Shown: positions 1 to 60,747 of the stretch, one piece after another
Layout of the letters: every line of letters starts with the position of its first letter
Numbering within the stretch: the first letter of the stretch is position 1
The notes under the pieces: generated by a model
What the model was told of the DNA's origin: nothing
What the model saw: only the letters and a program-made list of their open reading frames with translations
Database searches by the model: none
Position numbers and translations under genes: made by a program
Source of the DNA: a virus
Lineage: Duplodnaviria > Heunggongvirae > Uroviricota > Caudoviricetes
Length of the DNA stretch: 64,000 nucleotides
Direction: 5' to 3' (one strand)
IMG/VR virus record: IMGVR_UViG_2939121850_000001

Positions 1-861
1 ATGAATCAATCCTTTATCTCCGATATTCTTTACGCAGACATTGAAAGTAAGGCAAAAGAACTAACAGTTAATTCAAACAACACTGTGCAGCCTGTAGCGT
101 TGATGCGCTTGGGGGTATTCGTGCCGAAGCCATCAAAGAGCAAAGGAGAAAGTAAAGAGATTGATGCCACCAAAGCGTTTTCCCAGCTGGAGATAGCTAA
201 AGCCGAGGGTTACGATGATATTAAAATCACCGGTCCTCGACTCGATATGGATACTGATTTCAAAACGTGGATCGGTGTCATCTACGCGTTCAGCAAATAC
301 GGCTTGTCCTCAAACACCATCCAGTTATCGTTTCAGGAATTCGCTAAAGCCTGTGGTTTCCCCTCAAAACGTCTGGATGCGAAACTGCGTTTAACCATTC
401 ATGAATCACTTGGACGCTTGCGTAACAAGGGTATCGCTTTTAAGCGCGGAAAAGATGCTAAAGGCGGCTATCAGACTGGTCTGCTGAAGGTCGGGCGTTT
501 TGATGCTGACCTTGATCTGATAGAGCTGGAGGCTGATTCGAAGCTGTGGGAGCTGTTCCAGCTTGATTATCGCGTTCTGTTGCAACACCACGCCTTGCGT
601 GCCCTTCCGAAGAAAGAAGCTGCACAAGCCATTTACACTTTCATCGAAAGCCTTCCGCAGAACCCGTTGCCGCTATCGTTCGCGCGAATCCGTGAGCGCC
701 TGGCTTTGCAGTCAGCTGTTGGCGAGCAAAACCGTATCATTAAGAAAGCGATAGAACAGCTTAAAACAATCGGCTATCTCGACTGTTCAATTGAGAAGAA
801 AGGCCGGGAAAGTTTTGTAATCGTCCATTCTCGCAATCCAAAGCTGAAACTCCCCGAATAA
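1..861 (+). CDS. repA: Plasmid replication initiator RepA (P1 type)
   Basis: 286-aa ORF whose sequence I recognise as P1 RepA; immediately followed by the iteron array. Confidence 0.9.
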   Translation: MNQSFISDILYADIESKAKELTVNSNNTVQPVALMRLGVFVPKPSKSKGESKEIDATKAFSQLEIAKAEGYDDIKITGPRLDMDTDFKTWIGVIYAFSKYGLSSNTIQLSFQEFAKACGFPSKRLDAKLRLTIHESLGRLRNKGIAFKRGKDAKGGYQTGLLKVGRFDADLDLIELEADSKLWELFQLDYRVLLQHHALRALPKKEAAQAIYTFIESLPQNPLPLSFARIRERLALQSAVGEQNRIIKKAIEQLKTIGYLDCSIEKKGRESFVIVHSRNPKLKLPE

Positions 862-862
862 G

Positions 863-1146
863 TGTGTGCTGGAGGGCAGCTGCATTCAAAAAATGTGTGC
901 TGCCGGGAAGGCTTGTCCAATTTCCCGTTTTTGATGTGCGCTGGAGGGGGACGCCCCGCAGTTTGCTCAGACTTTCCCTCCAGCACACATCTGTCCATCC
1001 GTTTTTCCCTCCAGTGCACATGTAATTCTCTGTCTTTCCCTCCAGCACACATATTTGATACCAGCGATCCCTCCACAGCACATAATTCAATGCGACTTCC
1101 CTCTATCGCACATCTTAGACTTTTATTATCCCTCCAGCACACATCG
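863..1146. repeat. incA: incA copy-control iteron array, nine ~19-bp RepA-binding iterons (3 direct, 6 inverted)
   Basis: Repeats of GATGTGTGCTGGAGGG-like units read directly: TGTGTGCTGGAGGG, TGTGTGCTGCCGGG, GATGTGCGCTGGAGGGGG, then six CCCTCCAGCACACAT-like copies on the other strand. Confidence 0.8.
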
Positions 1147-1418
1147 AAGCTGCCGGGCAAGCCGTTCTCACCAGTTGATAGAGAGTGAAGCCTGGCTACC
1201 CGTTGAAGCAGGAAATCACCAAAATGATTCAGGCTACAGCCTGAACATAGAAGAAATCCGCGTCCTTTATGCGTGGAGGATGCCAAAGCATGTTGTGACA
1301 CACTTGGCAAAGGAGTAAACATGCAGAGAATGCTATGTACAAGCATCTACGCATACATTATTATTTTATGCAGCATTTTTAATTAAATTCAAAAATACAG
1401 CATAAAGGATGACTTTCG

Positions 1419-2615
1419 ATGAGTGATTCCAGCCAGCTTCACAAGGTTGCTCAAAGAGCAAACAGAATGCTCAATGTTCTGACTGAACAAGTACAGTTGC
1501 AAAAGGATGAGCTACACGCGAACGAGTTTTACCAGGTCTATGCGAAAGCGGCACTGGCAAAATTGCCTCTACTGACTCGAGCGAACGTTGACTATGCCGT
1601 AAGTGAAATGGAAGAAAAGGGTTATGTTTTCGATAAACGCCCTGCTGGCTCTTCAATGAAATATGCGATGTCAATTCAGAACATCATTGACATATATGAA
1701 CATCGCGGAGTGCCAAAATACCGGGATCGCTACAGCGAAGCGTATGTGATTTTCATCTCCAATCTTAAAGGCGGTGTGTCAAAAACTGTATCGACGGTTT
1801 CTCTGGCGCATGCAATGCGTGCTCACCCTCATCTTCTGATGGAAGATTTAAGGATTCTGGTTATTGACCTTGATCCGCAATCTTCAGCAACGATGTTTTT
1901 AAGCCATAAACACTCTATTGGTATCGTAAACGCAACATCTGCACAGGCTATGTTGCAGAATGTAAGCCGTGAAGAGCTGTTAGAGGAGTTTATTGTTCCT
2001 TCTGTTGTACCTGGGGTTGACGTTATGCCTGCGTCGATTGACGATGCCTTTATTGCATCCGATTGGAGAGAGCTGTGCAATGAGCATCTACCGGGTCAGA
2101 ACATCCATGCAGTCCTGAAAGAAAATGTGATTGATAAGCTGAAGAGCGATTATGACTTTATCCTCGTTGATAGTGGTCCTCACCTTGACGCCTTCCTGAA
2201 AAATGCTTTGGCCTCGGCCAATATACTGTTTACACCTCTGCCGCCTGCAACGGTTGATTTCCACTCATCGCTTAAATACGTTGCCCGCCTTCCTGAGTTG
2301 GTGAAACTCATTTCGGATGAAGGCTGCGAGTGCCAGCTTGCGACTAACATTGGTTTTATGTCCAAGTTGAGTAACAAGGCAGACCATAAGTATTGCCATA
2401 GCCTGGCTAAAGAAGTGTTCGGTGGGGATATGCTTGATGTCGTCCTCCCTCGCCTTGACGGTTTTGAACGCTGCGGCGAGTCTTTTGACACTGTTATTTC
2501 AGCTAACCCTGCAACGTATGTTGGTAGTGCTGATGCATTGAAGAACGCGCGAATTGCCGCGGAAGATTTTGCTAAAGCAGTTTTTGACCGTATTGAATTT
2601 ATCAGATCTAACTGA
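1419..2615 (+). CDS. parA: Partition ATPase ParA
   Basis: 398-aa ORF, deviant Walker A KGGVSKT; recognised as P1 ParA; upstream AT-rich imperfect palindrome consistent with parOP. Confidence 0.9.
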   Translation: MSDSSQLHKVAQRANRMLNVLTEQVQLQKDELHANEFYQVYAKAALAKLPLLTRANVDYAVSEMEEKGYVFDKRPAGSSMKYAMSIQNIIDIYEHRGVPKYRDRYSEAYVIFISNLKGGVSKTVSTVSLAHAMRAHPHLLMEDLRILVIDLDPQSSATMFLSHKHSIGIVNATSAQAMLQNVSREELLEEFIVPSVVPGVDVMPASIDDAFIASDWRELCNEHLPGQNIHAVLKENVIDKLKSDYDFILVDSGPHLDAFLKNALASANILFTPLPPATVDFHSSLKYVARLPELVKLISDEGCECQLATNIGFMSKLSNKADHKYCHSLAKEVFGGDMLDVVLPRLDGFERCGESFDTVISANPATYVGSADALKNARIAAEDFAKAVFDRIEFIRSN

Positions 2616-2631
2616 GGAGTAAGAAACCCCC

Positions 2632-3633
2632 ATGTCAAAGAAAAACAGACCAACAATTGGGCGAACCCTTAATCCTTCAATATTAAGCGGATTTGATAGT
2701 TCTTCAGCCTCTGGCGATCGAGTCGAGCAGGTATTCAAGTTATCAACTGGTCGCCAGGCCACATTTATTGAAGAGGTAATACCTCCGAACCAGGTAGAAA
2801 GCGATACCTTTGTTGATCAGCATAACAACGGGCGTGACCAGGCATCTCTTACGCCAAAATCATTAAAAAGTATCCGAAGCACTATTAAGCATCAGCAATT
2901 TTACCCTGCAATAGGTGTTAGACGGGCTACAGGGAAAATTGAAATTTTGGATGGTTCCCGGCGTCGAGCTTCTGCCATCTTAGAGAACGTAGGGTTGCGG
3001 GTTTTAGTCACGGACCAGGAGATCAGCGTTCAGGAAGCGCAAAATTTAGCGAAAGACGTTCAGACAGCATTGCAGCACAGCATTCGAGAAATAGGTCTGC
3101 GTTTGATGCGAATGAAAAATGATGGGATGAGTCAGAAGGATATTGCAGCCAAAGAAGGGCTGTCTCAGGCGAAGGTCACGCGTGCTCTCCAGGCAGCGAG
3201 TGCTCCGGAAGAATTAGTCGCCCTTTTCCCTGTGCAGTCGGAATTAACCTTTTCGGACTACAAAACGCTTTGTGCTGTTGGCGACGAAATGGGGAACAAG
3301 AATTTAGAGTTTGATCAGCTTATTCAAAACATATCCCCGGAAATAAACGACATCTTATCCATTGAAGAAATGGCCGAAGATGAAGTTAAAAATAAAATCC
3401 TGCGCTTGATAACAAAGGAAGCCTCACTACTCACGGATAAAGGTTCTAAAGATAAGTCCGTAGTTACTGAATTATGGAAATTTGAGGACAAGGATCGCTT
3501 TGCAAGGAAGCGCGTGAAAGGCCGTGCATTTTCTTATGAGTTTAATCGACTTTCAAAAGAGCTACAGGAAGAACTCGACAGGATGATTGGGCATATCCTT
3601 AGAAAGAGCCTCGATAAAAAGCCGAAGCCTTAA
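2632..3633 (+). CDS. parB: Partition protein ParB
   Basis: 333-aa ORF 16 bp after parA; recognised as P1 ParB. Confidence 0.9.
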   Translation: MSKKNRPTIGRTLNPSILSGFDSSSASGDRVEQVFKLSTGRQATFIEEVIPPNQVESDTFVDQHNNGRDQASLTPKSLKSIRSTIKHQQFYPAIGVRRATGKIEILDGSRRRASAILENVGLRVLVTDQEISVQEAQNLAKDVQTALQHSIREIGLRLMRMKNDGMSQKDIAAKEGLSQAKVTRALQAASAPEELVALFPVQSELTFSDYKTLCAVGDEMGNKNLEFDQLIQNISPEINDILSIEEMAEDEVKNKILRLITKEASLLTDKGSKDKSVVTELWKFEDKDRFARKRVKGRAFSYEFNRLSKELQEELDRMIGHILRKSLDKKPKP

Positions 3634-38290: not shown

Positions 38291-41021
<2,731 letters not shown>

Positions 41022-41054
41022 TTAATTAGAATAATTCACATCGTGTTTGAACGG

Positions 41055-41087: not shown

Positions 41088-41707
41088 ATGAACAAGCTAT
41101 CTATGGGGGTGTTTCGCTGTTCAAGTGTCAGCGAAATATTGAAATACATTAGGGCAATAACATCTCACCGAGCGCCGATTAAATATGGCGTGGAAAAGGT
41201 GGAAGGCAAAAGCTATGACCGACTGCGCCGGGAGGCGAATCAGAAGGCGATAGATTTGCTTAATTCGCTGGTGGACGGCGCGACACTGACAGATGAACAG
41301 CGCCAGATCCTGGCTGGGTACACCGGTGAAGGCGGCATTGGCGGGTCCGTCTCCGAATATTACACACCAAAGCCGATCGCTGAAGGTGTCTGGGAGATCA
41401 TGAAGCTCTACGGCGCGGACGTAGGTAACACTCTGGAACCATCGGCGGGAACCGGCGTTTTTAATGAGACAAAACCGGTTGGTACGGTGATGACCGCGAC
41501 TGAGATCAGCAGTGTTTCCGGTCGTATAAACCAGTTGTTACACCCGGAAGACAGCGTACAGATTTCCCCGTTCGAACAGCTGGCTGTAAGCACGCCTAAC
41601 GATTCATTCGACCATGTTGTGGGTAACGTTCCGTTCGGCGGTCGTGATAACACACGCAACATCGATAAGCCTTACGCAGAAGAAACGGACATGGGTTCTT
41701 ACTTCAT
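41088..41707 (+). pseudogene. darB: darB 5' fragment (methyltransferase-like N-terminus), cut by IS insertion
   Basis: Track ORF 41088-41717 reads into the IS inverted repeat and stops at TAG 41715; contains EPSAGTGVF and NVPF motifs. Confidence 0.75.
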
Positions 41708-44700
41708 GGGGTTCTAGGGATTTTCCGTCCAAAAACGACAAAGTGCTCTGGAGGCCGCGCCGTCCGTGGCCTCCAGAGGGGTATTACTTTTCGCTGACGG
41801 GTAAATATCCCTCGATTGAGCGCATAAGCTCCTCCAGATCTGGCAATTTTTCGCTCAATTCGAAGTGGTAAGTCCCCTTGAGGTTAATGTTGTGCCAGGC
41901 CACAGGGGATGCCTGTTTGACGATATCTATTCTCTTGGTATCTCCTTGGTATTCGAAGCTGGTCAACAGCTGGCTGAGTATCCTGGAGTTGAAGTAAACG
42001 ATGGCATTGGTGACCAGGCGAGCGCACTCATTCCATAGCTGGATTTCTTCGTCTGAACTGCCCCGGAACTGATCCCCATTGACGCTGCTCACGGCCCGAC
42101 GCAGTTGGTGATAGGCCTCTCCCCGGTTCAGCGCGCGCTGAACATAGTTTCTTAAACTGGCATCATCGATGTAGCACAGTAGATAATTCGCTTTCACCAG
42201 GCGATTGTATTCCGTCAGGGCTTCCAGCAGCGGGTGATTGCGCTTGTACTCCGAGAGCTTTCTCACCAAGGTGGCTTGCGTTGTTTTCCGCTGCTTAAGT
42301 GATACTGCAATCCGTTGGATGGTATCCCAGTGCTGCGCAATACGATGGGTATTGATTGGCTTTTTTAAGCACAGCTGAATTCGGTGTTCTTTGTCTTCCT
42401 TGACATCAAACATGTCATTGATCACTTTGCCAACCTGGGCATAGCGTGGGGCAAACTGGTATCCGAACAGATCCAGTAACGCGAAGTTCACATGGTTCAC
42501 CCCATGGGTATCGGTTGAGAGCACATCCGGAATGATGTCTGACGTATTGCTCATCAACAAATCAAAGATGTAGTGCGATTCATGTTCGTTGGCGCCGATC
42601 ACTCTGGCGTTGATCGCAGCGTGATTGGCGATCAAGGTCATGGCAGAAACACCTTTTTGAGTGCCAAAGTACTTCGACGAATAACGGGTTTTGAAGGTCT
42701 CGCGCCGGGCTTCGAACTTTTGACCATCGGCACTGGCGTGGATCACATCTTCCTGGATGTTGTAGTACCGGAAGATGGGTAGCTTGGCTGTCGCGTTATT
42801 GATGTTGTCGTTAGCAGCATTCAATGTTTCCAGGCGAAGATAGTTCGCCTGGATAGTGCTGAGCTGATCATAGGTACGATCAGAGATCTGTGCCATGCCG
42901 TAAATGCCTTGATTGGTTGCATTGCCGACCAGAATTGCCAACAGGTCATATTCATGGGAACGGCTTCTGGATTGGGAACCCAGCACATGAGCGAAGCAGT
43001 CAATGAAACCGGTGTCACGATCAACCATGCGCAGTACATCCGCAATCCCCGTTGTGGGAATTTGCTGGAAGAAGGGATTGTTGACCAGATGATGTTTGCT
43101 GGCCGAAGGCAGGCGCCAGAAGCGTTTACCCTGCGGATTACGCAAGATGATATTCCGGTTGTCTTCCTGTTCAAGATATTCGCCGACTTCGTACAAACGG
43201 GTATCCAATTCCATGGCCATCTGTTTGATCAGCTTTTCAGGCTCCTCCGCTAATTTTGTAAAATGGCTCTGTTGAAGCAGCGTATATTTGTTTTTTCGCC
43301 AATGTTCCCCGTCGATCAGGTCGGCGTCGAGTGCCCGGTATTTAGTGATATCAGGCAGCGTCAGCTGGCCATTCAGGCGATCAGGAATCTGTTGATAGAG
43401 GAACCACTCATAACGATCGATCAGGATATTCCCTTCACCATCCAGCAGGAATTCACGTGATTTTTTGGAAAGGAGTCTGGTGTCGGCAGTTTGCAACTGA
43501 GCGTCCTGGCCGTTGAGTTCGTTTTGTGTTTTCGCCAAGGCGGCCGCTAAGTGCTGGGTGCCGTCGCAGCCTTCGAAGCGCAGACATAGGAACAACTCTC
43601 GCAGCAAACCTTTCCGCAGACTTTCTTTCTCGTCGCAGTACTGCCACATGGCTTCATCGACCGATCGTCGCTGCTCGTTCAGGAAGAGACATACAGATTC
43701 CAGATCCCTTTTGGTCAGCAGGCTCAGTGCTTGCTGTCTTACTGTTGCAAACGGTAGTTGCAGATCAATGCTGTCATCAATGAACAGGTGCAGTACTTCA
43801 GCTGCCTTGCTGACATTTTTAGCTGCTTTTTGCCAATCCTTAAACACCGCTTCCTGCGCATAATCCTTTGCCTTCTGTTTGGTCTGTCTGACATGATGCA
43901 CAAAGCCATCGGCAATACGTTCCAGCGCTTGCTGCCATCGCGTTTGAAGATAGCACAATAAATACAGCCATTGGCTGCCTACGGTTTGACGTTTCAGTTT
44001 GGCACCGTAGTAGTCGACTTTCTCTGCCAGGTGTTGCAGATTTTTCTGCGACAGTGATAGCGTGCTCAACAGCAGATCCACTTCCGGCATCCAATGCTGG
44101 ATATGGCGATAGACAATCAGTTCTTTCTCCAACTCGGTTCCGGTGAAGTTACGAGCCGATTGTCGCAACTGTCGGAACGGCAGTGGACCTGTGCCGTTCA
44201 CGAGCTCCGCCAGTGCTTGCTTAAGACCGCGTGACATTGCACGCTCAAGGTGCGCGGCCATGTGTTCCTGTTCGTCTCCCACCACCTGACTGATGATCTT
44301 TTGCAGCGTGCTGTAGGCAGGGATTGCGATCTTCTGCCCCGAACAATATTCATTGGCCGCATCGAAGAGGTGCCTAGGCGCTGTCCAGGCTCTGGCTTGC
44401 TGGGATAAGTAATCTCTCAACGCCGCTCCATGGTCTTTGACATTCCAGCGCTGGTAGTTGCAGAGCTGGAAAACACGTTGGTAAATCCGTTCGTTCTCTT
44501 TTGGCGTGAGATTAAAGGGTCTACAGCCTGGGCCTGGTAGAACGGTTTGATAAACGTATTTGAGGTCCTGCTTGATCTGATGAAAGCCGGGATTCAGCAC
44601 CACCGGCTTGGCTTTGAAATAGCCCAGCAGTACCACCAGCATGTAACGCTGGCCCCGATGACGGAGGCTTTTAGCGATCGCCAGTTCCTTATCGTTCAGC

Positions 44701-44942
44701 GAGAAAAAGAAGCGTTGGTCGGCGGAGGTGAAAGCGGGGGGTCCATATAACTCATCTTGTTCTGCCTCGGACAAGATTTGGACACGTTCTTCGAATGCCA
44801 TGGATTTAGCCCAAAAAGACTAAATCTTACTCAAACAGAGCCCAAATAGGGATCTCGAAAAAAGTAATACCCCTCTGGAGGCCACAGACGGCGGGGCCTC
44901 CAGAGCACTTTGTCGTTTTTGGACGGAAAATCCCTAGAACCC
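41708..44942. mobile_element. Tn3-family insertion sequence (transposase only, ~3.2 kb) with ~88-bp terminal inverted repeats
   Basis: Both ends begin GGGGTTCTAGGGATTTTCCGTCCAAAAACGACAAAGTGCTCTGGAGGCC; 5-bp direct repeat TTCAT at 41703-41707 and 44943-44947. Confidence 0.8.
41784..44801 (-). CDS. tnpA: Tn3-family transposase TnpA
   Basis: Intact 1005-aa ORF filling the element; N-terminus MAFEERVQILSEAEQDELYG... typical of Tn3-family transposases. Confidence 0.85.
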   Translation of the reverse strand: MAFEERVQILSEAEQDELYGPPAFTSADQRFFFSLNDKELAIAKSLRHRGQRYMLVVLLGYFKAKPVVLNPGFHQIKQDLKYVYQTVLPGPGCRPFNLTPKENERIYQRVFQLCNYQRWNVKDHGAALRDYLSQQARAWTAPRHLFDAANEYCSGQKIAIPAYSTLQKIISQVVGDEQEHMAAHLERAMSRGLKQALAELVNGTGPLPFRQLRQSARNFTGTELEKELIVYRHIQHWMPEVDLLLSTLSLSQKNLQHLAEKVDYYGAKLKRQTVGSQWLYLLCYLQTRWQQALERIADGFVHHVRQTKQKAKDYAQEAVFKDWQKAAKNVSKAAEVLHLFIDDSIDLQLPFATVRQQALSLLTKRDLESVCLFLNEQRRSVDEAMWQYCDEKESLRKGLLRELFLCLRFEGCDGTQHLAAALAKTQNELNGQDAQLQTADTRLLSKKSREFLLDGEGNILIDRYEWFLYQQIPDRLNGQLTLPDITKYRALDADLIDGEHWRKNKYTLLQQSHFTKLAEEPEKLIKQMAMELDTRLYEVGEYLEQEDNRNIILRNPQGKRFWRLPSASKHHLVNNPFFQQIPTTGIADVLRMVDRDTGFIDCFAHVLGSQSRSRSHEYDLLAILVGNATNQGIYGMAQISDRTYDQLSTIQANYLRLETLNAANDNINNATAKLPIFRYYNIQEDVIHASADGQKFEARRETFKTRYSSKYFGTQKGVSAMTLIANHAAINARVIGANEHESHYIFDLLMSNTSDIIPDVLSTDTHGVNHVNFALLDLFGYQFAPRYAQVGKVINDMFDVKEDKEHRIQLCLKKPINTHRIAQHWDTIQRIAVSLKQRKTTQATLVRKLSEYKRNHPLLEALTEYNRLVKANYLLCYIDDASLRNYVQRALNRGEAYHQLRRAVSSVNGDQFRGSSDEEIQLWNECARLVTNAIVYFNSRILSQLLTSFEYQGDTKRIDIVKQASPVAWHNINLKGTYHFELSEKLPDLEELMRSIEGYLPVSEK

Positions 44943-44946
44943 CTTC

Positions 44947-47900
44947 ATGCTCCGCATGCTGGACAAAATAAAGACAGGCGGATTCATGTGCGTGATTGTG
45001 CCGCCGTCCATTGTTTCAGGTTCAAACATGAAGCGGTTACGCCTGCGCCTATCACGGAAAGCTGAATTTCTTGGTGCCCACCGCCTGCCTACCGGTACTT
45101 TTGACGCAAACGGGACCAGTACGGTCGTAGATGTGGTGCTGATGCGCAAACATCCGGCAGAGATGGCTGAGAAAATCCCCCTGGTGGATGAAAGCACTCT
45201 TGAATCGGCAAATGTGCTTTGGCCAACGTTTATTTCTGGCAAGTGGTTTGAAAAGGATGGCCGCCGGTTTGTTCATGGCACCCAGGAAAAGGGCTTCCAG
45301 GGGCGTATTGAGGTTCGTGCCGACGGTCAGATTGATAACCAGGCTCTTAAAGCGAAGCTGATTCATCGTTTCGAAAGCCGTATCGACTGGTCTTTGCTCG
45401 ATATGGCTGAACCGTCACCGACCGCAGACGTTGTTGGTGAAGGGGAAATGCGCCTGATTAATGGCGTATGGCAAAAATATGCTGGTGGTCGCTGGATTGA
45501 AGCTGATGCCGGGAAGGAACTTAAGATCGATGCTGCCAGTTATGGCGCGGATAGCTGGGAGGCTCTTCAGCGTAACCTGACTACAACAGAAGGCCGTCTC
45601 GGCATGACATTTACCCAGATGGCAAATGTCCGCGATAAGTACACCACATCAATCAGCGACGATATGGTGCAGCTGGTGGACTGGATTAACAGCCAGCCTG
45701 AAAAATACCGTGAACGCTTGTATCGCGGGGCGATGATTGGCCGGATGTTAATTGAATATCAGGACATGAAGGCCGCCGGGCATAGTGCTGAACAAATCGA
45801 ACAGCAGCGCCTTTCTCTGGTATCCCGTTTGCAGGCAGAGATTGACCGTTTTGGTAACCCCGGTCGCGGTCCGATAGCGAAATTATCGGGGAGCGGTGCG
45901 CGCGCCTGGTTTGCTTTCCGTGGTGCAATTAAGCTGGATGGCACTATTTCTGACGAGCTGACAGGAAAGCTGGTTACGCATGATTCCAGCGCAAGTTATG
46001 ACTCCACCAGCTATCAGGACACCCTGCGTTATCTCTACAGTGATCTCACTCGCGATCCAATCCAGCTCGATGATTTCCGCCTTGCGTTTACCGGCGAACT
46101 GCCAGCCAGTGATGAAGAGTTGCTTAATTTATTGGCCAGCACCCCTGGTATTGCGGTTTCACCGTATGGCGGGATTGTTCCGTTCGCCCGCGCCACCAGC
46201 GGCGACATTAACGAGATAGTGGCTCCAAAACAGGAATTCCTCGCCACGCTCCCCGACGGTCCAGTAAAGAACAACGTCCTTAATCAGCTGGCAGCGATCG
46301 AAGAGAAGCGCATCAAGACGCCAGCAGAGAATATCCGGTTTAAGCTCAATAGCCGTTGGTTCGACCGTTCCGTCATTCTGGAATTTTTGCAGGAAAACGG
46401 CTATCCGGATCTGCGCTATGTGCAGTCAGTGCAGCTTGAAGGCGACGAAATGGTTTCTGACACCTATCACGGTGGTGATGGTCTGTTCGTCGGGCACCGA
46501 TACGGTGTCGTCCAGCGCAAGGATAAAGAAACAGGCGAGATCCGCTACGAGTGGGACCGTAAATCAGGTGAAAACGCGACCGGGTTCCCGGCACAGCTGG
46601 AAAAGTATCTCAATGGTGCGCGTATCGGTGGCAAAGATAGCGCGACGGCGAACGGCTACCGCGAGCAGATGGCACTGCTTGAGGACCAGTTCAATAAGTG
46701 GATCAAGACGCACGATCGCTACGATGAGCTGGTTGCCAAATACAACGATGTTTTCAATAGCAATATCCCGTATGAACACTCTGGCGATCCGCTTGGGTTG
46801 AAGGGATTAAGCGGTAAGCGACAGCCATTTGATTACCAGAATAGCGAGGTGCGCCGACTGTCCGAAGATGGGCGCGGCATCCTGGGCTTCGGTACCGGGC
46901 TGGGTAAAACCACGACCGCGCTGGCGCTTGAGGCGTTCAACTATGAGAACGGTCGTTCCACCCGTACTGCGTATGTAGTGCCTAAATCAGTGCTGGAAAA
47001 CTGGTATTACGAAGCAAAAGAGTTTCTGAGTGAAGAGGCATTCAGTAACTACCTGTTCGTCGGTCTTGATGTGCTGATGGATGGCGATCAGATTCGCCAG
47101 GTGCCGGTGCTCGATGAGAACGGTAAACCTGTCGTTGGTGCAGATGGCACTCCCGTTATGCGCGATGCCCTTAAGCTGGCAGATGAAGCCACTATCACGG
47201 CGCGGATGAACGCGATCCCGCACTCAAACTACCGTGCAGTCGTGTTTACCAAAGAACAATACGCCCGCATTCCGCTACGTGATGACACCGTAGATGAGCA
47301 TGCACAAGACATGCTTTATGACTTCGTTGCTGCCGGGCGTGTGGCCAGCGCAATGGACTCCGATTCCCATCGCAAAGAGGCGGCGCGTCGCCGGGTATTG
47401 TCGGAGTATTCAGATACCGGTACCGAAAAAGCAGAGAAGTATCCGTACTTTGAGGATATGGGCTTCGACAGCGTGATTGCTGACGAAGGCCACAACTACC
47501 GCAATAGCTATAAAAATGGTCGCGAAGCGTCACAGCTGGCCTATCTGCCCACCAGCGCGGTGGCGCAATCGGCGCGAGATATGGCAATCAAAAACGCGTA
47601 CCTGATGAAAAAGAATGGTGGGCGTGGACCGGTTCTCCTGACTGCAACGCCAGTCGTTAACACCCCGATCGATGCATACAACATGCTTTCTCATGTTCTG
47701 CCGAAGGAATACTGGCAGAAGATGGGGATCTACGGTCCTGATGACTTCGTTAAATTCTTCGGCAAGACCAGGCTGGAAACGGTACAGAAAATCAGCGGTG
47801 AAGTTGAAGAAAAAATGGCGCTGGTGGGCTTTGAAAACCTTGATGCGCTGCGCGGCATATTCCATCGCTGGACAACGCTTAAAACGGCGGAAGACGTTAA

Positions 47901-50900
47901 GGATACCGTGGAGATCCCGGAACTGGACGAACACCAGCAGGATGCACCACTTACTGAAGAACAACTGGCGGCGTATGAAGAATTGCGTCAACAGGCGGAA
48001 GCGGCAGCAAAAGCCAACAATGGCGTAACGACCTCGGTTAATGAAGACGGCGTGATTGAGCACGAGAAAGCCCGTCCGATCTTCTCAATAATCAGGGATA
48101 TGGACCGCGTATGTACTGACATGGACCTGTACTATCGCCGGATCACCTATCGTTTCCTGCCGGAGTACGCCGATGCGGTGCAGCAGCTGGCGGACAGTTT
48201 GCCTAAACAAGCCACCAGCGAAGACGACGACAGTGATGATTCAATCACGCAGCAATCGCAATACTCCCTGATAGATAAGGGCGAGTTTATTCAGTTGCAG
48301 GTTCCGGAAGCGTTCGAGCAGGAAGTGAATAAGCGCCTGGCCAAGTTTGGCATTGACGAACAGACCGTAACTCACCCCGTTACGCCCAAATACGTGAAGC
48401 TGATTGCCACGCTGAAGGAGTTTTTCCCGGAAGGGAAGCAAATCATCTTCACCGACGAAAAAACGCAGCACCAGAAGCTCAAGCGCATTATCTGCAATGC
48501 TCTTAACCTTGAACCTTCAAAGGTGGGGATCCTGAATGCTCAGACGGTTGCCGAGGCAGGTAAAACCGGTAAGAAACTGAAAGCGGTTAAACCGCCGAAA
48601 GAGTTACCGGATGAACCAACAGATGCACAGATAGCGAAATACAACGAGCAAATGGCTCTGTATGACGCCTATATCGCGCAGCAGAATGAAATGTCGTTGG
48701 GCGGTCTGGAAAAGATTGCAGCCGACTTCCAGGAGGGCCGGACTCCGATCATCATCTGCAACAAAAAGGCAGAGGTGGGTATCAACCTGCATCGAGGAAC
48801 GACTGACATCCATCATCTGACGTTGCCATGGACACCAGCCAGTATCGCACAGCGTAACGGTCGCGGTGCCCGAGTTGGCTCCAACCGTGCAAGCGTTCGC
48901 GTTCACTACTACTGCGGCAAGGGTTCTTTCGATGAATACCGACTGAAGACGCTGAAGCGTAAAGCAGGCTGGATCTCCGATATCCTCCGTTCAGATAAGT
49001 CAGAAATGGAGAACGCCGACGCCAACGATATGATCGAAATGCAGATGTATACCGCTAAGGATGATGGCGAACGTCTGGCAATGATGCAGGTTCAAATGGA
49101 TAAGGCGAAAGCCGCGCAACGCGCTCGCCAGAAAGAACAGGCTACTATCGACCTTCAGAACTACATCAAGGCGCAGCACGCAGCTGGCGAGGATGTGGAG
49201 GTACTTACCGCTGAATTAGAGCGAAGCAAAGCGGAACTTGAAAAGACCACCGCCGAGGTAGCTAAATTCAAACAGGCGGTAATGGCCAAAGCAGCTGATA
49301 ACGCAGACTGGAAAGCCCGCTGGGGTAGCGTCCATCACACAGACCGTACGTTGTTAGCACAGTATCGCGCGTCGTTGAAAAGCGCCATTCAGCGCAAGGC
49401 TAATATCTCTCAAGCCATCTCCCGCTATGAGAAATTATTGAACCGTACTCAGAAGGCCGCGACGGATATCAAACGCCTGCGCCCGCTGGTGGAGGATGCA
49501 ATAAATAAAGGCATTCTGGATGTTGATCCTGACCTGGTTAACCATGCGAGTGAGTTCCTTGTTATCGGCGATCGCTCATGGCGTGTAGGCCAATACTACG
49601 ATTGTGCCGGTGATATCGTTCGCATTAAGTCGCTGGACTTCGACAGCCAGCGCGCAGACGTGGAGATTATCTTTACCTTCAAAGGTACCAAATCGGGTAA
49701 CTGGGATGTGAAGACGCTGGATAAACAGGTTGATGTAACTCCCGATGAAGATGCTGTTATGCAGAAAATCAGTGGTGGCGTCTCCATCGCCGGGATTAAC
49801 GACATCATTTCCTGTGACGATTTCTACCGTTTCCAGCAGCGCGGCATGATCAAAATCACTGACTCATACGGCGTTCAGACTACAGAGTCAGGCTATAGCA
49901 TCGATTTTGTTGGTACCTATACGGACCCACTGAAGCATGCGGTTTACCCGGATCGCCGTGACGGCGCGCTGAAGTCGTCAATTGCAAAATGGGTGCTTGG
50001 TATGATGTCGGAAGGGAATAACCGCCAGATCCGTTCGGCAGAAACATTCCTGGTTGAACTGTTTGGCTCCAATTATGGCGATGTAATCGCGTCATACGGA
50101 GATACGCTATCCCCTGAAGCAATTCAGGAGAAAATAGCGGATGCGATCGCCAGAATGCCGGAAAAAACAAGCCAGGGGGCTACTCGTAACGGGGATTCTG
50201 AACTTGAAGTCACCAATGCCATTTTCGGTACCAATGAGTTCCGGGCGTCAGATTATGAGATCACCACAGCACAGTTTGGCACCATTGGCATTTACAGCAA
50301 TAAAGACGAGATCAAACAGTCAATGGACGCTGCAAGCGCGCGCATTGCAGCAGAACGCAAAGCCAATCTGAATCATGCAGTTTCCGCGCTGACTCAATCG
50401 TGGGTAACAGCAATCAGGGAGGCCGCCACCACAGGAAAAATCACACCGGCAATTGCGGATGTCGTAAACGACGGCTCTAAATTTATGGATGCCTATAAAA
50501 TGGATGCGGTGCAGTTGCCATCAGCCTATGGTCAACTCAGCTATCGCATGACCTACAACCTGGTATCAATGTTTTCCGACCTTGCCATCCTTGGGCTGGT
50601 GGATCTTAACGAGGTTACGCCGGAATTGCTCAGCATGCGCAAGAATCATGTGGAGATATTGCAGAGAATTAACACGGTTCTTGCCGGGCGCACCGATGAA
50701 GAGAAACAGGCCGACGCTGATCGGATAAACCTGGCCCTTGGCAACATCACGGAGGAAGAGATTGCCGCCAGAAACGAGAAACAAGAAGAGTTATCATCAA
50801 TACAGGGTGATGCCACCAGCATAGCTCAGTCTCTTGGTCTGAATTATCGCGTATCCACCGCCGACCTGAAGATGATGTACGCACCAAAATTCGCCGCTGG

Positions 50901-51096
50901 CGAGGTATTTGGGCTTCAGGAAGCCTCAGGCATGAAAGGCGTTCTTTTCCGTGCGAAAGACGCAATCAAGGCGAAATTCGGCGCTCGCTGGCTGCCAGCG
51001 AAGGCGAAGAACAGCGATTTCCCGGGTAACTGGTGGATTATCGAGACAAAACACAACGTGGCGGACGTTCTGGCCGTCATCCAACAATACGCATAA
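44947..51096 (+). pseudogene. darB: darB 3' portion (helicase region), intact 2049-codon ORF separated from its 5' end
   Basis: Superfamily-2 helicase motifs GFGTGLGKTTTALALEA, VIADEGHNYRN, LLTATPVVNTP; deleting the IS and one TTCAT copy joins ...GSYFM to LRMLDK... giving about 2255 aa. Confidence 0.75.
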
Positions 51097-51129: not shown

Positions 51130-51570
51130 ATGGCCACACTATCTGATACAATAAAACCGAATAAAACATATCTTGAGGCGGTACTCCGTACAGCGTTGTT
51201 AGGAAAGACAGAAGACGAATACGTTGATTTCTTCCTGTCAGGGCTACGCGGGCGATTACTGAAAAATCCCCGCCTGTACCGCAGCTATGGCCCATACTGG
51301 CCGGAAATTAAAAAATTATTACTGGAGCGCGGTTATGGTAATTTCGGTCGTCTCGTTGACCGTGACGTTCGCAAAATTTACCGTTATGACCGCCCGGCGC
51401 TGACGCTCATAGCTGCGACGCTCTACAGCCAGGAGCGTTTTGATAATGGTCAGATATACTCAGCCTGGCATTTACTGCCAGTGCCTGAAGAGGTTGACGA
51501 CCAGGACTATGAGTTTGAGTCTTACGATTTGGAAGTTGAAGCCTTGGCACAGGCTGGAGAGAAAACTTGA
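51130..51570 (+). CDS. Ulx-like protein (synteny only)
   Basis: 146-aa ORF directly downstream of darB. Confidence 0.45.
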   Translation: MATLSDTIKPNKTYLEAVLRTALLGKTEDEYVDFFLSGLRGRLLKNPRLYRSYGPYWPEIKKLLLERGYGNFGRLVDRDVRKIYRYDRPALTLIAATLYSQERFDNGQIYSAWHLLPVPEEVDDQDYEFESYDLEVEALAQAGEKT

Positions 51571-51861: not shown

Positions 51862-53169
51862 TTACACTATATTCTTAACTATAAGGTTGGCGTCCTTCAA
51901 GGTGCCTAATGTTTCAATGTGGTTTTTTATCATTAATCTATTTGAGGCAATTATTGCAGGCCATCGTGTTTCCCAAGCTCTGTAAGCATACCAAGAAACT
52001 CCCCAATTCCTTTCTTTACTCATATGACCCATCGAGTATTCAACTGCGTCTAAATATGTTTTTTCATACTTAGTATTGCTAACCTCTATGATGCTTCCAA
52101 AATATATAAGCCATTTTGCCAACTGTTCATATTGCTCCCACGCTCCGTTATTCCTTGTTAACTTTCTCTTTTTTTCTATTATCCTTTCGAAAAGAGAAAC
52201 GACTTTATCATCATTCCAATCTAAACCTTCCGATATAATTGATGATATAATTTGATAAAATGAATCCTCTAATTTAAGATATTCATTTTTATAAGTATAA
52301 GCCCCCGAAACAACTTTTCTGATATTTTCGCGCGCTCTTTCAATGATGTCTTTAATGAGAGACATCTTATAACTTAATCGACTAAAGAAACAATCTATTT
52401 CTGTATTGTCAATTACCCTTATACCAAAGCAATAGAAGTAATAATCCTTCATATCTTGACTTACTTTGTTGCGAGATATCAAAAAGATATTAGAGCACAG
52501 GGCATTATTTTTCGAAAATTTTTTATAGTCATTTATAATTGCTTTAAGATTTGTGTCGCTTAAAGAATACCCTAATATCGCAACTGTATTTTCATGCAGC
52601 ATCGTACTAAGTTTTCGTGAAAAATAAGTATCGGAATTTATAAATCTGAAGTAATCATCTGAAGTGACAATCATATTTTTTGGCGAATCAATAGAACCAT
52701 GAATATGATATATTTTCACCTTGGATGGATACTTTGGAATTGGCAGACCGGGCGTGATAGACTGTACACTTTCATCTCCAACCAAGCATTCAGCCAACTT
52801 GTCATAATTTGTTGTAATGACACGGAATGAGTTTTTTTGGAAAAAATCTTTTATATTTGATATGTCTTCTCCAAGTTGAATTGGAGATATGATGTCAACA
52901 ATTTCATCATAAATCGACTTACCCTCAATATTGAGCTTCAAAGATAGTATTTGTGCGGCTTCTTCAAGACTCAGTGCTGGTGGTTTATCATCAGGGAATA
53001 ACGTGTCTTCCAACTTTTTGGCATTGTGAACTTTGCTGCAAACTTTTTTTAATAGTTCCTTCCACGTTGGAGCTTCACCGTTCGAGACTGCCTTTGAAAA
53101 GCCAGTCCCGGTAAATAGACAAAGCCTGCTTGTAGCGGTAGCGTATGCTAACTCAACATATTCGCTCAT
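51862..53169 (-). CDS. SIR2-like (sirtuin-fold, putative NAD-consuming) defence candidate with uncharacterised C-terminal domain
   Basis: 435-aa ORF, ~one-third GC; motifs GTGFS (aa 21-25), TTNYD (119-123), HIHG (155-158), VTSDDY (168-173), GYSLSD (200-205); own SD GGAG. Confidence 0.7.
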   Translation of the reverse strand: MSEYVELAYATATSRLCLFTGTGFSKAVSNGEAPTWKELLKKVCSKVHNAKKLEDTLFPDDKPPALSLEEAAQILSLKLNIEGKSIYDEIVDIISPIQLGEDISNIKDFFQKNSFRVITTNYDKLAECLVGDESVQSITPGLPIPKYPSKVKIYHIHGSIDSPKNMIVTSDDYFRFINSDTYFSRKLSTMLHENTVAILGYSLSDTNLKAIINDYKKFSKNNALCSNIFLISRNKVSQDMKDYYFYCFGIRVIDNTEIDCFFSRLSYKMSLIKDIIERARENIRKVVSGAYTYKNEYLKLEDSFYQIISSIISEGLDWNDDKVVSLFERIIEKKRKLTRNNGAWEQYEQLAKWLIYFGSIIEVSNTKYEKTYLDAVEYSMGHMSKERNWGVSWYAYRAWETRWPAIIASNRLMIKNHIETLGTLKDANLIVKNIV

Positions 53170-53225
53170 TACTTACTCCATTTACTTATAGTTCTATGGA
53201 GAAGTATACCCTAATGCATTGACGT

Positions 53226-53867
53226 TTATAGATAATTTCCTTTTCCAGTTAACTCCCCTTTAGGCACCCGTTTTTGTGCCAGTGTTTGGGTTCCGCGAAT
53301 TATGTTAATCAGAGGGCTTAGTAACGATGATTCCTGGCGGGCATCAACTTCTCCTGCCATTGCCCTAATGTAGTCGGCGCTTGCAACGTTGTTATATTCC
53401 GTTGCGAAGCAGCATAACAACGTCAGAACGTGCTCTGTCGTTATTTCGCTCCAGTTGATGTTGAAAAATTCATCGCCTTTTTTGTCATGTTCGGAATCGA
53501 AGATGCTTTGGTGAAGGATGTATTTGCCGGATTCCTTGCGCGGTAACTTGATCGCTTTCTGGCGTTCCAATTCCTTGTAAATCTGCATCGCTTCAATCAG
53601 TACCGGTCTGCCGTTCATGAAGGGATCACGCAACCTTACACGCTGGCCAACTCGACCGGTAATAAAGCTGTTTTCCTCTTCCACCAGCACGATAAAACCC
53701 TTTTCCTCTTTTTCTCGCAATTCGCGCAGCAGCTGGAGTTCCATATCGCGGCGGCGTTCAGGGTAGCTGGTCCGCTCAGCCATTATCAGCTCATTGTTGA
53801 TCCATGCGGCAGTCATTGACGCCGGTTTGCCGACGCTCATCGAAACAACGCATATTTTCTTATCCAT
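53226..53867 (-). CDS. Mat-like protein (synteny only)
   Basis: 213-aa ORF from ATG 53867 with SD AGGGG; backbone-like GC. Confidence 0.4.
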   Translation of the reverse strand: MDKKICVVSMSVGKPASMTAAWINNELIMAERTSYPERRRDMELQLLRELREKEEKGFIVLVEEENSFITGRVGQRVRLRDPFMNGRPVLIEAMQIYKELERQKAIKLPRKESGKYILHQSIFDSEHDKKGDEFFNINWSEITTEHVLTLLCCFATEYNNVASADYIRAMAGEVDARQESSLLSPLINIIRGTQTLAQKRVPKGELTGKGNYL

Positions 53868-53996
53868 AGCGCCCCTACAAAAAAGAAAAGCCACCAGCGG
53901 CGGCTTAGCAATACAACTGAAGGTAGCGCCCGGTACTCAGACTGTGCCGTCCATGGAATATTTGAAAAGGGATCCATCCGTACCGGGCGTGTGATG

Positions 53997-58296: not shown

Positions 58297-59330
58297 TTAT
58301 TCAGCCGCCACCGGTTTTAACAAGCCAGCATCGAGCAGTTTACGCGTCAACCACTGTTGGCCTTTCCCCGTTAATTGGGGCGTCAGCCGTATCTGGTAGC
58401 CCTCTTCATCATCCAGCACCACTTCTTTCACTGTGAAATATCCGGCGTTTATGTACTGCTGGAACGGTACATTTTTACGGCCGCCGGACGCTATCAGAAT
58501 GCCGTTCTCCCGTAACCAGGCAAACAGCGCATTTTGTTTAAGTCCAACGACCTTTGCAAAATTCCCAATCAGGATCCCCTTAGCCACTGATACCCGGTCG
58601 GCAAAATCGACTTTGGGGGCTGCGGCCACCAGCTGCTGATTTAGCTGATGGGCTTTCTGTTCCAGAAGTTGCTTTTGTTCGGCCAGTTCGGCAGCCAGGC
58701 GGAGGGCTTCTGGGAGTGTCTGGGGGATTGCGATCGGTTGCTGTTCTTTTTGTCGGAAGTAGCTGTCTTCCAGTTTTTCAAAGAATGCCCACGCTTCATT
58801 TGTGTCCACGATCTTAGACATGCGTGCCGCTCCGCGCTCGGCCCAGAGAATTACCTGACTTGTATATTTGCTAACCAAGTGACTAATAGTCACTAGCCTT
58901 TTAAATTCCTTTAATTTTGAACCAGTTAAGAGATAGTAATGCTTACCTTCTTCAAAGCGATCGGGGTTGCGAGACAGATTTTTACGAATATTCGCTTCAT
59001 CGGTCCCATACCCCTTAGCAAGAGTCTCAGTTGTCACTACACGCACTCCCAGCCATTCCAGAACGGGAATTTCATCAGGCTGATTTTGAGCAACCACCAG
59101 CTCTGATTCCTGAACTGAAGGTGCATGAGTTTTTTCTGATTTAACGTTAGTTGCTTTCATTCTGTGTGCCTCCTTGCGTGTTTCGGCTGCGACGGTTGCG
59201 TAATTCAGATGACCCTGTTCGAGCAGGTATTCGCGGATATCAGACAACAGGATACGGTGAACCGCGTTCTTGTCCTTTCTCCGGTAAAGTTGTTTGGTGA
59301 TCATGAAGTAGTTGGCAATAACGCCTGGTA
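58297..59330 (-). pseudogene. Second antirepressor (ant-like) gene, 3' part, separated from its start by IS10
   Basis: C-terminus near-identical to Ant at 11767-12810; reading frame continues up to the IS10 junction. Confidence 0.75.
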
Positions 59331-60659
59331 CTGAGAGATCCCCTCATAATTTCCCCAAAACGTAACCATGTGTGAATAGATTTTGAGTAAGCAGGGTTGC
59401 AGCCACGAGTGAGTCTTCCCTTGTTATTGTGTAGCCAGAATGCCGCAAAACTTCCATGCCTAAGCGAACTGTTGAGAGTACGTTTCGATTTCTGACTGTG
59501 TTAGCCTGGAAGTGCTTGTCCCAACCTTGTTTCTGAGCATGAACGCCCGCAAGCCAACATGTTAGTTGAAGCATCAGGGCGATTAGCAGCATGATATCAA
59601 AACGCTCTGAGCTGCTCGTTCGGCTATGGCGTAGGCCTAGTCCGTAGGCAGGACTTTTCAAGTCTCGGAAGGTTTCTTCAATCTGCATTCGCTTCGAATA
59701 GATATTAACAAGTTGTTTGGGTGTTCGAATTTCAACAGGTAAGTTAGTTGCTAGAATCCATGGCTCCTTTGCCGACGCTGAGTAGATTTTAGGTGACGGG
59801 TGGTGACAATGAGTCCGTGTCGAGCGCTGATTTTTTCGGCCTTTAGAGCGAGATTTATACAATAGAATTTGGCATGAGATTGGATTGCTTTTAGTCAGCC
59901 TCTTATAGCCTAAAGTCTTTGAGTGACTAGATGACATATCATGTAAGTTGCTGATAGGTTTCCAGTTTTCCGCTCCTAGGTCTGCATATTGTACTTTTCC
60001 TCTTACTCGACTTAACCAGTACCAACCCAGCTTCTCAACGGATTTATACCATGGCACTTTAAAGCCAGCATCACTGACAATGAGCGGTGTGGTGTTACTC
60101 GGTAGAATGCTCGCAAGGTCGGCTAGAAATTGGTCATGAGCTTTCTTTGAACATTGCTCTGAAAGCGGGAACGCTTTCTCATAAAGAGTAACAGAACGAC
60201 CGTGTAGTGCGACTGAAGCTCGCAATACCATAAGCCGTTTTTGCTCACGGATATCAGACCAGTCAACAAGTACAATGGGCATCGTATTGCCCGAACAGAT
60301 AAAGCTAGCATGCCAACGGTATACAGCGAGTCGCTCTTTGTGGAGGTGACGATTACCTAACAATCGGTCGATTCGTTTGATGTTATGTTTTGTTCTCGCT
60401 TTGGTTGGCAGGTTACGGCCAAGTTCGGTAAGAGTGAGAGTTTTACAGTCAAGTAAGGCGTGGCAAGCCAACGTTAAGCTGTTGAGTCGTTTTAAGTGTA
60501 ATTCGGGGCAGAATTGGTAAAGAGAGTCGTGTAAAATATCGAGTTCGCACATTTTGTTGTCTGATTATTGATTTTTGGCGAAACCATTTGATCATATGAC
60601 AAGATGTGTATCTACCTTAACTTAATGATTTTGATAAAAATCATTAGGGGATTCATCAG
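59331..60659. mobile_element. IS10 (1329 bp) with 9-bp target site duplication CGCCTGGTA
   Basis: Ends CTGAGAGATCCCCTCATAATTTCCCC and CTGATGAATCCCCTAATGATTTT (reverse complement); direct repeats at 59322-59330 and 60660-60668. Confidence 0.95.
59344..60552 (-). CDS. IS10 transposase
   Basis: 402-aa ORF MCELDILHDSLYQFCPELHLKRLNSLTLACHALLDCKTLTLTELGRNLPTKARTKHNIKRIDRLLGNRHL... recognised as IS10 transposase. Confidence 0.95.
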   Translation of the reverse strand: MCELDILHDSLYQFCPELHLKRLNSLTLACHALLDCKTLTLTELGRNLPTKARTKHNIKRIDRLLGNRHLHKERLAVYRWHASFICSGNTMPIVLVDWSDIREQKRLMVLRASVALHGRSVTLYEKAFPLSEQCSKKAHDQFLADLASILPSNTTPLIVSDAGFKVPWYKSVEKLGWYWLSRVRGKVQYADLGAENWKPISNLHDMSSSHSKTLGYKRLTKSNPISCQILLYKSRSKGRKNQRSTRTHCHHPSPKIYSASAKEPWILATNLPVEIRTPKQLVNIYSKRMQIEETFRDLKSPAYGLGLRHSRTSSSERFDIMLLIALMLQLTCWLAGVHAQKQGWDKHFQANTVRNRNVLSTVRLGMEVLRHSGYTITREDSLVAATLLTQNLFTHGYVLGKL

Positions 60660-60747
60660 CGCCTGGTATATCCCTGGTACTGATACAGGCAGTGTGCTGT
60701 TCAATTGCCTCGATCATCTCTTCACGGGTGACTAATGACGTTCTCAT
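60660..60747 (-). pseudogene. ant-like gene 5' fragment (first ~29 codons)
   Basis: ATG at 60747 with SD; encodes MRTSLVTREEMIEAIEQHTACISTRDIPG, paralogous to Ant N-terminus. Confidence 0.7.

Follow-up and report, generated by a model that had tools for sequence, protein, structure and literature searches.

IS3000 is a named subgroup within the Tn3 family (PMC7157771), and direct repeats of 5 bp flank insertions of IS3000 and of the composite transposon Tn3000 (PMC8407110). DarB, a protein of the virion, works in cis against EcoK and EcoB (PMC5512222, PMC9024508), and its residues 1–30 are the capsid-targeting signal (PMC9024508). The two come together in the DNA treated here, a single stretch of 64,000 nucleotides (the window, to which all positions refer). 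Our reading is that darB of a P1-like (IncY) phage-plasmid very probably received a single IS3000 copy by transposition, which left the gene null. IS3000, P1-like darB and this type of event are all already known; below we describe the element, its junctions with darB, the expected consequences for the gene and its neighbor, and the alternatives that were weighed.

The inserted element

A complete IS3000 of 3,236 bp occupies positions 41708–44943 on the minus strand. Over its full length (1–3236) it shows 100% identity to copies in at least 1,350 plasmids found in a PLSDB search, and the matching records are annotated 'Tn3-like element IS3000 family transposase'. The sole gene within this copy, tnpA (41784–44801, minus strand), encodes a 1005-aa Tn3-type DDE transposase. 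Its Pfam matches are PF01526 (DDE_Tnp_Tn3, E 1.3e-129, profile positions 1–389 of 389 covered) and PF13700 (DUF4158, E 4.5e-29), and it is 100% identical to a protein (P0001) whose cluster has 1,405 member sequences. Non-coding DNA at the ends amounts to 76 and 142 nt only, with tnpA filling the rest, and the copy is organized as an IS, a resolvase, a res site and passenger genes all being absent. Transposase, terminal repeats, 5-bp duplication, identity and organization, the properties tested, all agree with a Tn3-family IS of the IS3000 subgroup. Judged by its identity to the plasmid copies, the element is the known IS3000 and is not new.

An earlier note on this DNA had described a Tn3-family IS carrying only a 1005-aa transposase, which both the 100% identity to IS3000 and the Pfam matches bear out. 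The range given there, 41703–44947, does contain the element, but it adds the left TTCAT and reaches the ATG of the ORF on the 3′ side, the element proper being confined to 41708–44943.

Terminal repeats

The terminal inverted repeats are each of 84 nt, at 41708–41791 on the 3′ side of tnpA and at 44860–44943 on its 5′ side, and the two arms match at 82 of 84 positions (98% complementary). They are indeed unusually long and near-perfect, as had been claimed, although the length of ~88 bp first assigned to them is reached only when a 2-nt indel is allowed. The first 38 nt of the repeat, starting GGGGTTCTAGGG, form a canonical Tn3-type end (GGGGT...AAAAC) that has 16 of 38 positions in common with the Tn3 repeat, GGGGT and AAAAC included. 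This 38-nt terminal sequence occurs exactly 2 times in the 64-kb window, compared with 0 expected.

Each repeat contains the palindrome CTCTGGAGGCC-N11-GGCCTCCAGAG, at 41746–41778 in the repeat on the 3′ side of tnpA and at 44873–44905 in the second, so that the internal palindrome reported before is confirmed at both ends. On the minus strand the palindrome at 41746–41778 lies 6 nt beyond the stop codon of tnpA and has CACTTTGTCGTTTTTGG after it, a terminator-like arrangement; folded in the tnpA sense, at the 3′ end of the gene, it gives a dG of −38.2 kcal/mol (z −4.6). In a covariation test that set 69 distinct repeat ends from IS3000 relatives against shuffles, base pairing in the palindrome did not exceed the shuffled level (paired cells 68.1% versus 67.5% in the shuffles), and its covariation score was 0.142 versus 0.152. 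On this ground we rejected the idea that the repeat holds a hairpin or terminator conserved at the RNA level, there being no covariation beyond shuffles despite good folding in IS3000. As a sequence, the palindrome is nonetheless preserved throughout the IS3000 family.

The inner 46 nt of the repeat consist of CTGnAGnCC-N11-GGCCTnCAGAG and then GGGTATTACTTTT. We compared ~35 distinct IS3000-type elements, spanning 52–100% TnpA identity, and this inner module keeps its length and position at both ends in all of them. Because it is kept in length and position without covariation, a role at the level of DNA is conceivable. As a tentative and rather doubtful proposal, the module may be a binding module, a second site for transposase or for a host factor, needed by Tn3-family elements that have no resolvase.

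Target site, junctions and rejoined frame

The interrupted gene is darB, as the earlier note had it. At the DNA level its 5′ part shares 99% identity with P1 darB, the rejoined protein is identical to P1 DarB at 2230 of 2255 residues without a gap, and the gene order is that of P1, prt-darB-ulx-lxc (prt encoding the portal). A sigma-70-like promoter, CTGCCA-18-AATAAT (41006–41035, plus strand), was detected by consensus scan at the position of P1 PdarB, which the P1 annotation places 56–86 nt upstream of the darB start.

Comparison with P1 and excision delimit the 5′ portion of darB (41088–41707, plus strand) as codons 1–206 together with bases one and two of codon 207. Within it lie the capsid-targeting signal (aa 1–30) and two motifs of the methyltransferase, I (EPSAGTG) and IV (NVPF). 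The present-day truncated ORF (41088–41717, plus strand) encodes 209 aa, namely DarB residues 1–207 and then Gly-Phe (...GSYFMGF), with a stop TAG in the IS3000 repeat. The 3′ portion (44947–51096, plus strand) encodes 2049 aa, DarB residues 207–2255, which take in what remains of the methyltransferase fold, the SNF2/SF2 helicase and the C-terminal region; its ATG is a rebuilt Met207 codon, made of the AT of the right TTCAT and the next G.

Perfect copies of the target-site duplication TTCAT, 5 bp, lie at 41703–41707 on the left and at 44944–44948 on the right, and 5-bp duplications were also found at five IS3000 relatives. The target TTCAT corresponds to darB codons 206–207, the cut falling at codon 207, and the total inserted into darB is 3,241 bases. 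In-silico excision of IS3000 and one TTCAT leaves a single open frame of 2,255 aa that reads ...GSYFMLRMLDK... across the join. The rebuilt 600-nt empty site is identical at 600 of 600 positions to an uninterrupted relative, NZ_CP040069.1, and the darB region is uninterrupted in 454 of the 457 PLSDB records that carry it. What had been said of these junctions on first reading (a 5-bp TTCAT duplication, a 5′ ORF that stops inside the inverted repeat, a 3′ ORF that resumes directly past the element, and an in-frame product of about 2255 aa) stands in every part, the continuity of the frame having passed the check by excision.

Pfam assigns residues 90–291 of rejoined DarB to N6_Mtase and residues 166–244 to Eco57I, and the rejoined protein aligns to HsdM structures across the insertion point. 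Neither darB half alone matched a methyltransferase model in a Pfam profile search; the insertion bisects the adenine-methyltransferase domain, at a point past motif IV and ahead of the strands that come next. The helicase domains are kept in the 3′ portion, where SNF2-rel_dom, Helicase_C and ResIII all match. A methyltransferase-helicase of ~2,255 aa close to P1 DarB appears only after in-silico excision, in its proper place between prt and ulx-lxc; in the DNA as it stands, the targeting signal and the enzymatic domains are divided between frames of 209 and 2049 aa in place of one uninterrupted frame linking them.

Expression and function after insertion

From its structure, darB is most likely a null allele. 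The alternative that survives best, though improbable, is that darB is split yet functional, its 3′ ORF being made from the Met207 ATG by read-through or from an outward IS promoter, or its two fragments reassembling. The in-frame ATG rebuilt exactly at Met207, the intact helicase domains and an intact ulx are in keeping with this, but the 3′ product would be without residues 1–30, needed to direct the protein to the capsid (PMC9024508), the protection given by DarB is exerted in cis from within the virion (PMC5512222), and the methyltransferase domain is bisected past motif IV. A separately made 3′ product would stay unpackaged because IS3000 separates residues 1–30 from the rest. As to how the 3′ ORF might be expressed, nothing promoter-like was picked up by a consensus scan in the IS3000 end that faces it (a simple scan of this kind could miss a weak outward promoter), and no Shine-Dalgarno was found in the sequence upstream, GAAAATCCCTAGAACCCCTTCATG. 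Read-through from PdarB into the 3′ portion is possible; PdarB transcripts would, however, have to pass a strong hairpin with a T-rich tract behind it, and 3 kb of untranslated RNA after that. The earlier note had offered separate expression of the helicase part as an alternative to inactivation, and rescue by that route is unlikely for a 3′ ORF that has no targeting signal, an incomplete methyltransferase and neither a promoter-like site nor a Shine-Dalgarno ahead of it.

For a darB-null phage, loss of the DarB-dependent protection of virion DNA against EcoK and EcoB is predicted, as first suggested, and this fits the literature (PMC9024508, PMC5512222, PMC12810830). The other five Dar genes (hdf, darA, ddrA, ddrB and ulx) are intact and 97–99% identical to those of P1. 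Among them ulx, which is needed for DarB localisation, lies downstream of darB (51130–51570, plus strand), and its product is identical to P1 Ulx at 144 of 146 residues. Since the P1 annotation gives ulx no separate promoter, the IS3000 insertion may be polar on it.

Other occurrences and independent support

An exact-protein look-up in Logan found the left darB-IS3000 junction also in a short-read assembly, SRR6442662. Its contig SRR6442662_84 encodes the identical 209-aa product and ends 31 nt into the IS, as is expected because IS3000 is a multicopy repeat. SRR6442662 may be the same isolate as the window, and would in that case count as read support and not as an independent occurrence. 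For the right junction, the exact-product look-up of the 3′ ORF protein found no record. No IS3000 copy was found among the 50,697 records of the phage collection, and literature containing both 'IS3000' and 'darB' gave only false matches on the author name Darban-Sarokhalil.

Searches of PLSDB, complete E. coli genomes, GTDB representatives, IMG/VR and JGI metagenomes did not turn up the exact junction. This absence would suit an assembly artefact in which IS3000 really lies elsewhere, such as on a resistance plasmid, and was misplaced into darB during repeat resolution; so would the multiple IS3000 copies in many Enterobacterales genomes and the break of the Logan contig at the IS edge, a place where short-read assemblers struggle. 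We nevertheless rate an artefact as still less probable than a functional split gene: a misjoin would not yield a perfect 5-bp duplication around a complete element, removing IS3000 restores the frame and the 600/600 match to the empty site, and a contig built by another assembler also contains the left junction. Least probable of all, and rejected, is that this IS3000 is one end of a larger Tn3000-like composite with two copies flanking blaNDM, for although IS3000 commonly forms Tn3000 (PMC8407110), no more than two IS3000 ends occur in the 64-kb window, inverted relative to each other and separated by 3,236 bp, as against the two copies of a composite, the 5-bp duplication directly flanks the single copy, and P1 backbone lies on both sides of it.

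Proposed course of events and its meaning

Transposition of a single IS3000 copy into darB, the reading we prefer, can be set out as follows. IS3000 is very common on IncX3/NDM-type plasmids, and common on carbapenem-resistance plasmids. Because of the former, and from what is known of the family, the donor would have been a co-resident plasmid, with an IncX3 plasmid as the likeliest candidate. Transposition would be replicative and proceed via a cointegrate, again by analogy with the family (PMC7157771); because IS3000 has no resolvase, host homologous recombination would be needed to resolve the cointegrate and leave a simple insertion. Translation from the darB start would then stop at 209 aa, in a product that keeps the targeting signal but, of the methyltransferase, no more than motifs I and IV. 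The 2049-aa ORF would sit behind 3.2 kb of untranslated sequence, antisense to tnpA and containing hairpins, and would lack its own promoter, its own ribosome-binding site and the head-packaging signal. Virions of the phage are thus expected to lack DarB and to be open to restriction by type I systems of the EcoK/EcoB kind. With hdf, darA, ddrA and ddrB undamaged, the protection that depends on DarA should persist; ulx is likewise intact, though polarity may lower its expression.

For annotation, the ORFs of 209 and 2049 aa belong together as one darB pseudogene interrupted by IS3000. The phage-plasmid would be a natural darB-null member of the P1-like group that, if inducible, hosts of the EcoK/EcoB type should restrict, which would narrow its infective host range, and it could serve as a natural control in Dar-system work. 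IS3000 builds the blaNDM transposon Tn3000 and has here moved onto a phage-plasmid; an otherwise intact P1-like phage with a blaNDM-mobilising IS could spread IS3000 by infection while being darB-null. Knowledge of IS3000 or of DarB individually is unchanged by the case, a clean insertion of an ordinary kind.

Comparison with known systems

The identical 3,236 bp, the 1005-aa TnpA, the 84-nt repeats and the 5-bp duplication of the IS3000 reference copies (PMC8407110) are all common to the element described here, so that nothing distinguishes it from known copies except its unusual location. IS1071 is a transposase-only IS of the Tn3 family with unusually long terminal repeats of 110 bp. It forms a separate subgroup (PMC7157771), and the two are likened by description only: both carry just a transposase and have long repeats, whereas TnpA subgroup and repeat sequence differ.

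The comparison for the gene is with P1, whose DarB, of 2,255 aa, is 99% identical to the rejoined protein and has prt upstream and ulx-lxc downstream in both genomes; darB is intact in P1, whereas the gene here is interrupted at codon 207. According to its annotation, reference P1 itself carries an IS1, between isaA and isaB, and an IS5, with a 4-bp duplication near mod. Like the IS3000 copy here, these resident ISs have target duplications and sit in accessory regions, in a P1 genome that is functional in other respects. They belong, however, to other IS families and neither is in darB, whereas IS3000 here interrupts darB itself.

Structure and identity of the insertion

The earlier note described the darB antirestriction gene as split precisely by a Tn3-family IS, and its observation is accurate throughout apart from a slightly generous repeat length. 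The repeat finder places long inverted arms at 41708-41791 and 44860-44943, 98% complementary and matching at 82 of 84 positions in a scripted arm-versus-arm comparison; the ungapped repeat is thus 84 nt, not about 88. The internal palindrome noticed there, CTCTGGAGGCC...GGCCTCCAGAG, lies within both arms. A script located the 5-bp duplication TTCAT on either side of the element, at 41703-41707 and 44944-44948, and the window has precisely two occurrences of a 38-nt end sequence where chance would predict none. According to the ORF list and the border sequence, the truncated 5′ ORF (209 aa, 41088-41717, plus strand) enters the repeat and meets a TAG stop inside it, and a 2049-aa ORF starts on the plus strand at 44947, right after the element. 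The 1005-aa transposase ORF (41784-44801) lies on the opposite, minus strand. It is the sole cargo, as had been claimed: beyond it the two ends of the element consist of just 76 and 142 non-coding nt, so that a resolvase, a res site and passenger genes are all lacking.

The element is IS3000, with which it agreed in every defining feature tested. It is 3,236 bp long and 100% identical end to end to PLSDB copies annotated "Tn3-like element IS3000 family transposase". A near-complete copy is found in at least 1,350 PLSDB plasmids, mostly of Klebsiella, Escherichia and Enterobacter, and many of these are of IncX3 size (~46 kb). The transposase (TnpA) has Pfam hits to DDE_Tnp_Tn3, over the full profile (E 1e-129), and to DUF4158, and shares 100% identity with a cluster named IS3000 transposase, which has 1,405 member sequences. 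Seven TnpA subgroups are recognized in the Tn3 family, one named after IS3000 (PMC7157771), and the composite form of IS3000, Tn3000, generates 5-bp direct repeats on insertion (PMC8407110). The window contains a single IS3000 copy, which rules out a Tn3000-type composite and makes this a simple IS insertion.

The interrupted gene and its empty site

The flanks are assigned by similarity to a P1-like (IncY) phage-plasmid: the 21.7 kb upstream have 99.6% identity to NZ_CP040069.1, and the 19 kb downstream match P1-like plasmids at 94-98%. We identify the interrupted gene as darB from the 5′ ORF, whose DNA is 99% identical to P1 darB, and from in silico excision. Removal of 41708-44948 (the element and one TTCAT copy) yields the single frame of 2,255 aa that had been anticipated, identical to P1 DarB at 2230 of 2255 residues with no gaps. 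Over 600 nt the rebuilt empty site has 100% identity to NZ_CP040069.1, and the region is uninterrupted in 454 of the 457 PLSDB records carrying it; the uninterrupted darB is therefore ancestral and the insertion precise.

An assembly misjoin is contradicted by the perfect duplication, the complete element and the exact restoration of both the frame and the relatives' sequence, which together are the signature of transposition. Another assembly pipeline yielded, from a public short-read run, the 24-kb P1-like Logan contig SRR6442662_84, which encodes an identical 209-aa truncated product. This contig bears the left darB-IS3000 junction, reads ...TACTTCATGGGGTTCTAGGGATTTTCCGTCCAAAAA and terminates after 31 nt of the IS, the kind of break that a multicopy repeat is expected to cause in short-read assembly. 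The run may represent the window's source isolate or a second carrier. An exact-product look-up of the 3′ ORF gave no independent recovery of the right junction. The darB-IS3000 junction was absent from PLSDB, 5,426 complete E. coli genomes, GTDB representatives, IMG/VR and JGI metagenomes, and IS3000 itself from the 50,697 phage records searched, so this darB allele is rare in these collections.

Tn3-family transposition is replicative and proceeds via cointegrates (PMC7157771). Such a cointegrate would have joined an IS3000 donor plasmid to the phage-plasmid, and because IS3000 has no resolvase, the host would have had to resolve it by homologous recombination between the two copies of 3.2 kb, leaving a single copy with its 5-bp duplication in darB. 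That the Logan contig breaks at the IS edge agrees with the presence of further IS3000 copies in the genome it comes from.

Predicted consequence for DarB and the other Dar genes

Among proteins that pair a methyltransferase with an SF2 helicase, DarB is the archetype; it resides in the virion head and shields injected DNA in cis from type I enzymes of the EcoK/EcoB kind (PMC5512222; PMC9024508 Table; PMC12810830). The gene is interrupted at codon 207. Once rejoined, the protein has matches to Pfam N6_Mtase (residues 90-291) and Eco57I (residues 166-244); HsdM structures align directly across the cut (...NVPFGG...SYFM|LRMLDKIKTGGFMCVIVP versus NPPFG...GGRAAVVLP); and neither half by itself matches any methyltransferase model in a Pfam search. 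The catalytic domain is thus bisected between motif IV and the strands that follow.

The earlier note had allowed that the helicase part could be expressed separately. The last two bases of the right TTCAT copy, AT, and the G that follows happen to rebuild the Met207 codon, so that the 2049-aa ORF, which holds the helicase and all else, does open with ATG. However, inspection of the upstream sequence found no Shine-Dalgarno sequence ahead of this ORF, and a promoter scan found no promoter-like site facing it. Transcripts from the darB promoter, PdarB, would need to pass the hairpin in the repeat, the T-rich tail behind it and a further 3 kb that is untranslated and runs antisense to tnpA. If it were made at all, the product still could not act from the virion, since the packaging signal, DarB residues 1-30 (PMC9024508), stays on the 209-aa fragment. 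Function kept in this way is unlikely, and we rate darB, with high confidence, as a predicted null.

The other Dar genes have their P1 length and are 97-99% identical to P1: hdf (201/203), darA (631/639), ddrA (117/121), ddrB (978/995) and ulx (144/146). DarA-dependent functions should be unaffected. The P1 annotation lists no separate promoter for ulx, which may therefore be subject to polarity from the insertion; Ulx works in the DarB branch, so this would bring no new phenotype.

Long repeats and IS3000 relatives

Relatives were gathered as at least 120 protein clusters among the matches listed (54-100% identity) and 79 genomic loci, mostly from marine Gammaproteobacteria. A TnpA with 100% identity to the IS3000 protein occurs in Alcanivorax hongdengensis A-11-3 and in metagenome-assembled genomes of Thalassolituus and Pseudohongiella (loci L008, L009 and L011), and about 35 distinct transposase-only 3.2-kb relatives (52-91% identity; L012-L083) span marine Gammaproteobacteria, which hints at a marine origin for the clinically widespread IS3000. 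Nearly all relatives are transposase-only and 3.21-3.24 kb long, with repeats of 60-100 nt beginning GGGGTnCTAGGGATTTTCC; the long repeats are a trait of the IS3000 family, not peculiar to this copy. Identical 5-nt flanks were seen in 5 of ~45 family copies with both flanks readable (L047, L062, L065, L069 and L070, among L005-L083). Unmatched flanks in the rest would fit intramolecular replicative transposition or inter-copy recombination of a resolvase-less element.

In an ungapped alignment of 69 distinct ends the inner repeat module is positionally conserved. Over its 11 palindrome pairs, 68.1% of cells are paired (shuffles, 67.5%) and the covariation score is 0.142 (shuffles, 0.152), with no sign of compensatory change, so the palindrome is kept, imperfectly, as sequence. 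A DNA-level protein-binding role would fit it better than a conserved RNA helix, which we reject. In IS3000 itself the palindrome may serve as a tnpA terminator, as on the tnpA-sense strand the stem (dG -38.2 kcal/mol, z -4.6) is followed by a T-rich tract.

Wider setting

A second intact IS in the window, an IS10-like element (IS4 family) of 1,329 bp at 59331-60659, is flanked by the 9-bp duplication CGCCTGGTA (59322-59330 and 60660-60668), has the typical ends CTGAGAGATCCCCTCATAATTT and CTGATGAATCCCCTAATGATTT, and encodes a 402-aa transposase (59344-60552, minus strand). Its neighbours are a KilAC/ANT antirepressor gene (58297-59304, minus strand) on one side and an icd-like gene on the other; an ISVsa5-family transposase is listed in the corresponding region of some other P1-like plasmids. 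Just downstream of lxc, in place of the EcoP1I mod/res of reference P1, a minus-strand pair at 51862-53894 encodes a 435-aa SIR2_2-domain protein (weakly matching the defence sirtuins Dsr1/Dsr2) and a 222-aa product that matches no family. NZ_CP040069.1 shares this arrangement, which looks like a defence-module swap at a variable spot.

Finding darB::IS3000 is useful for annotation, for the host-range phenotype that it predicts, and because it exemplifies how a resistance-associated IS can reach a phage-plasmid. It is a known kind of event with known parts: the element has the same sequence as reference IS3000 over 3,236 bp, reference P1 itself carries IS1 and IS5, and ISs are familiar in the accessory regions of P1-type genomes.
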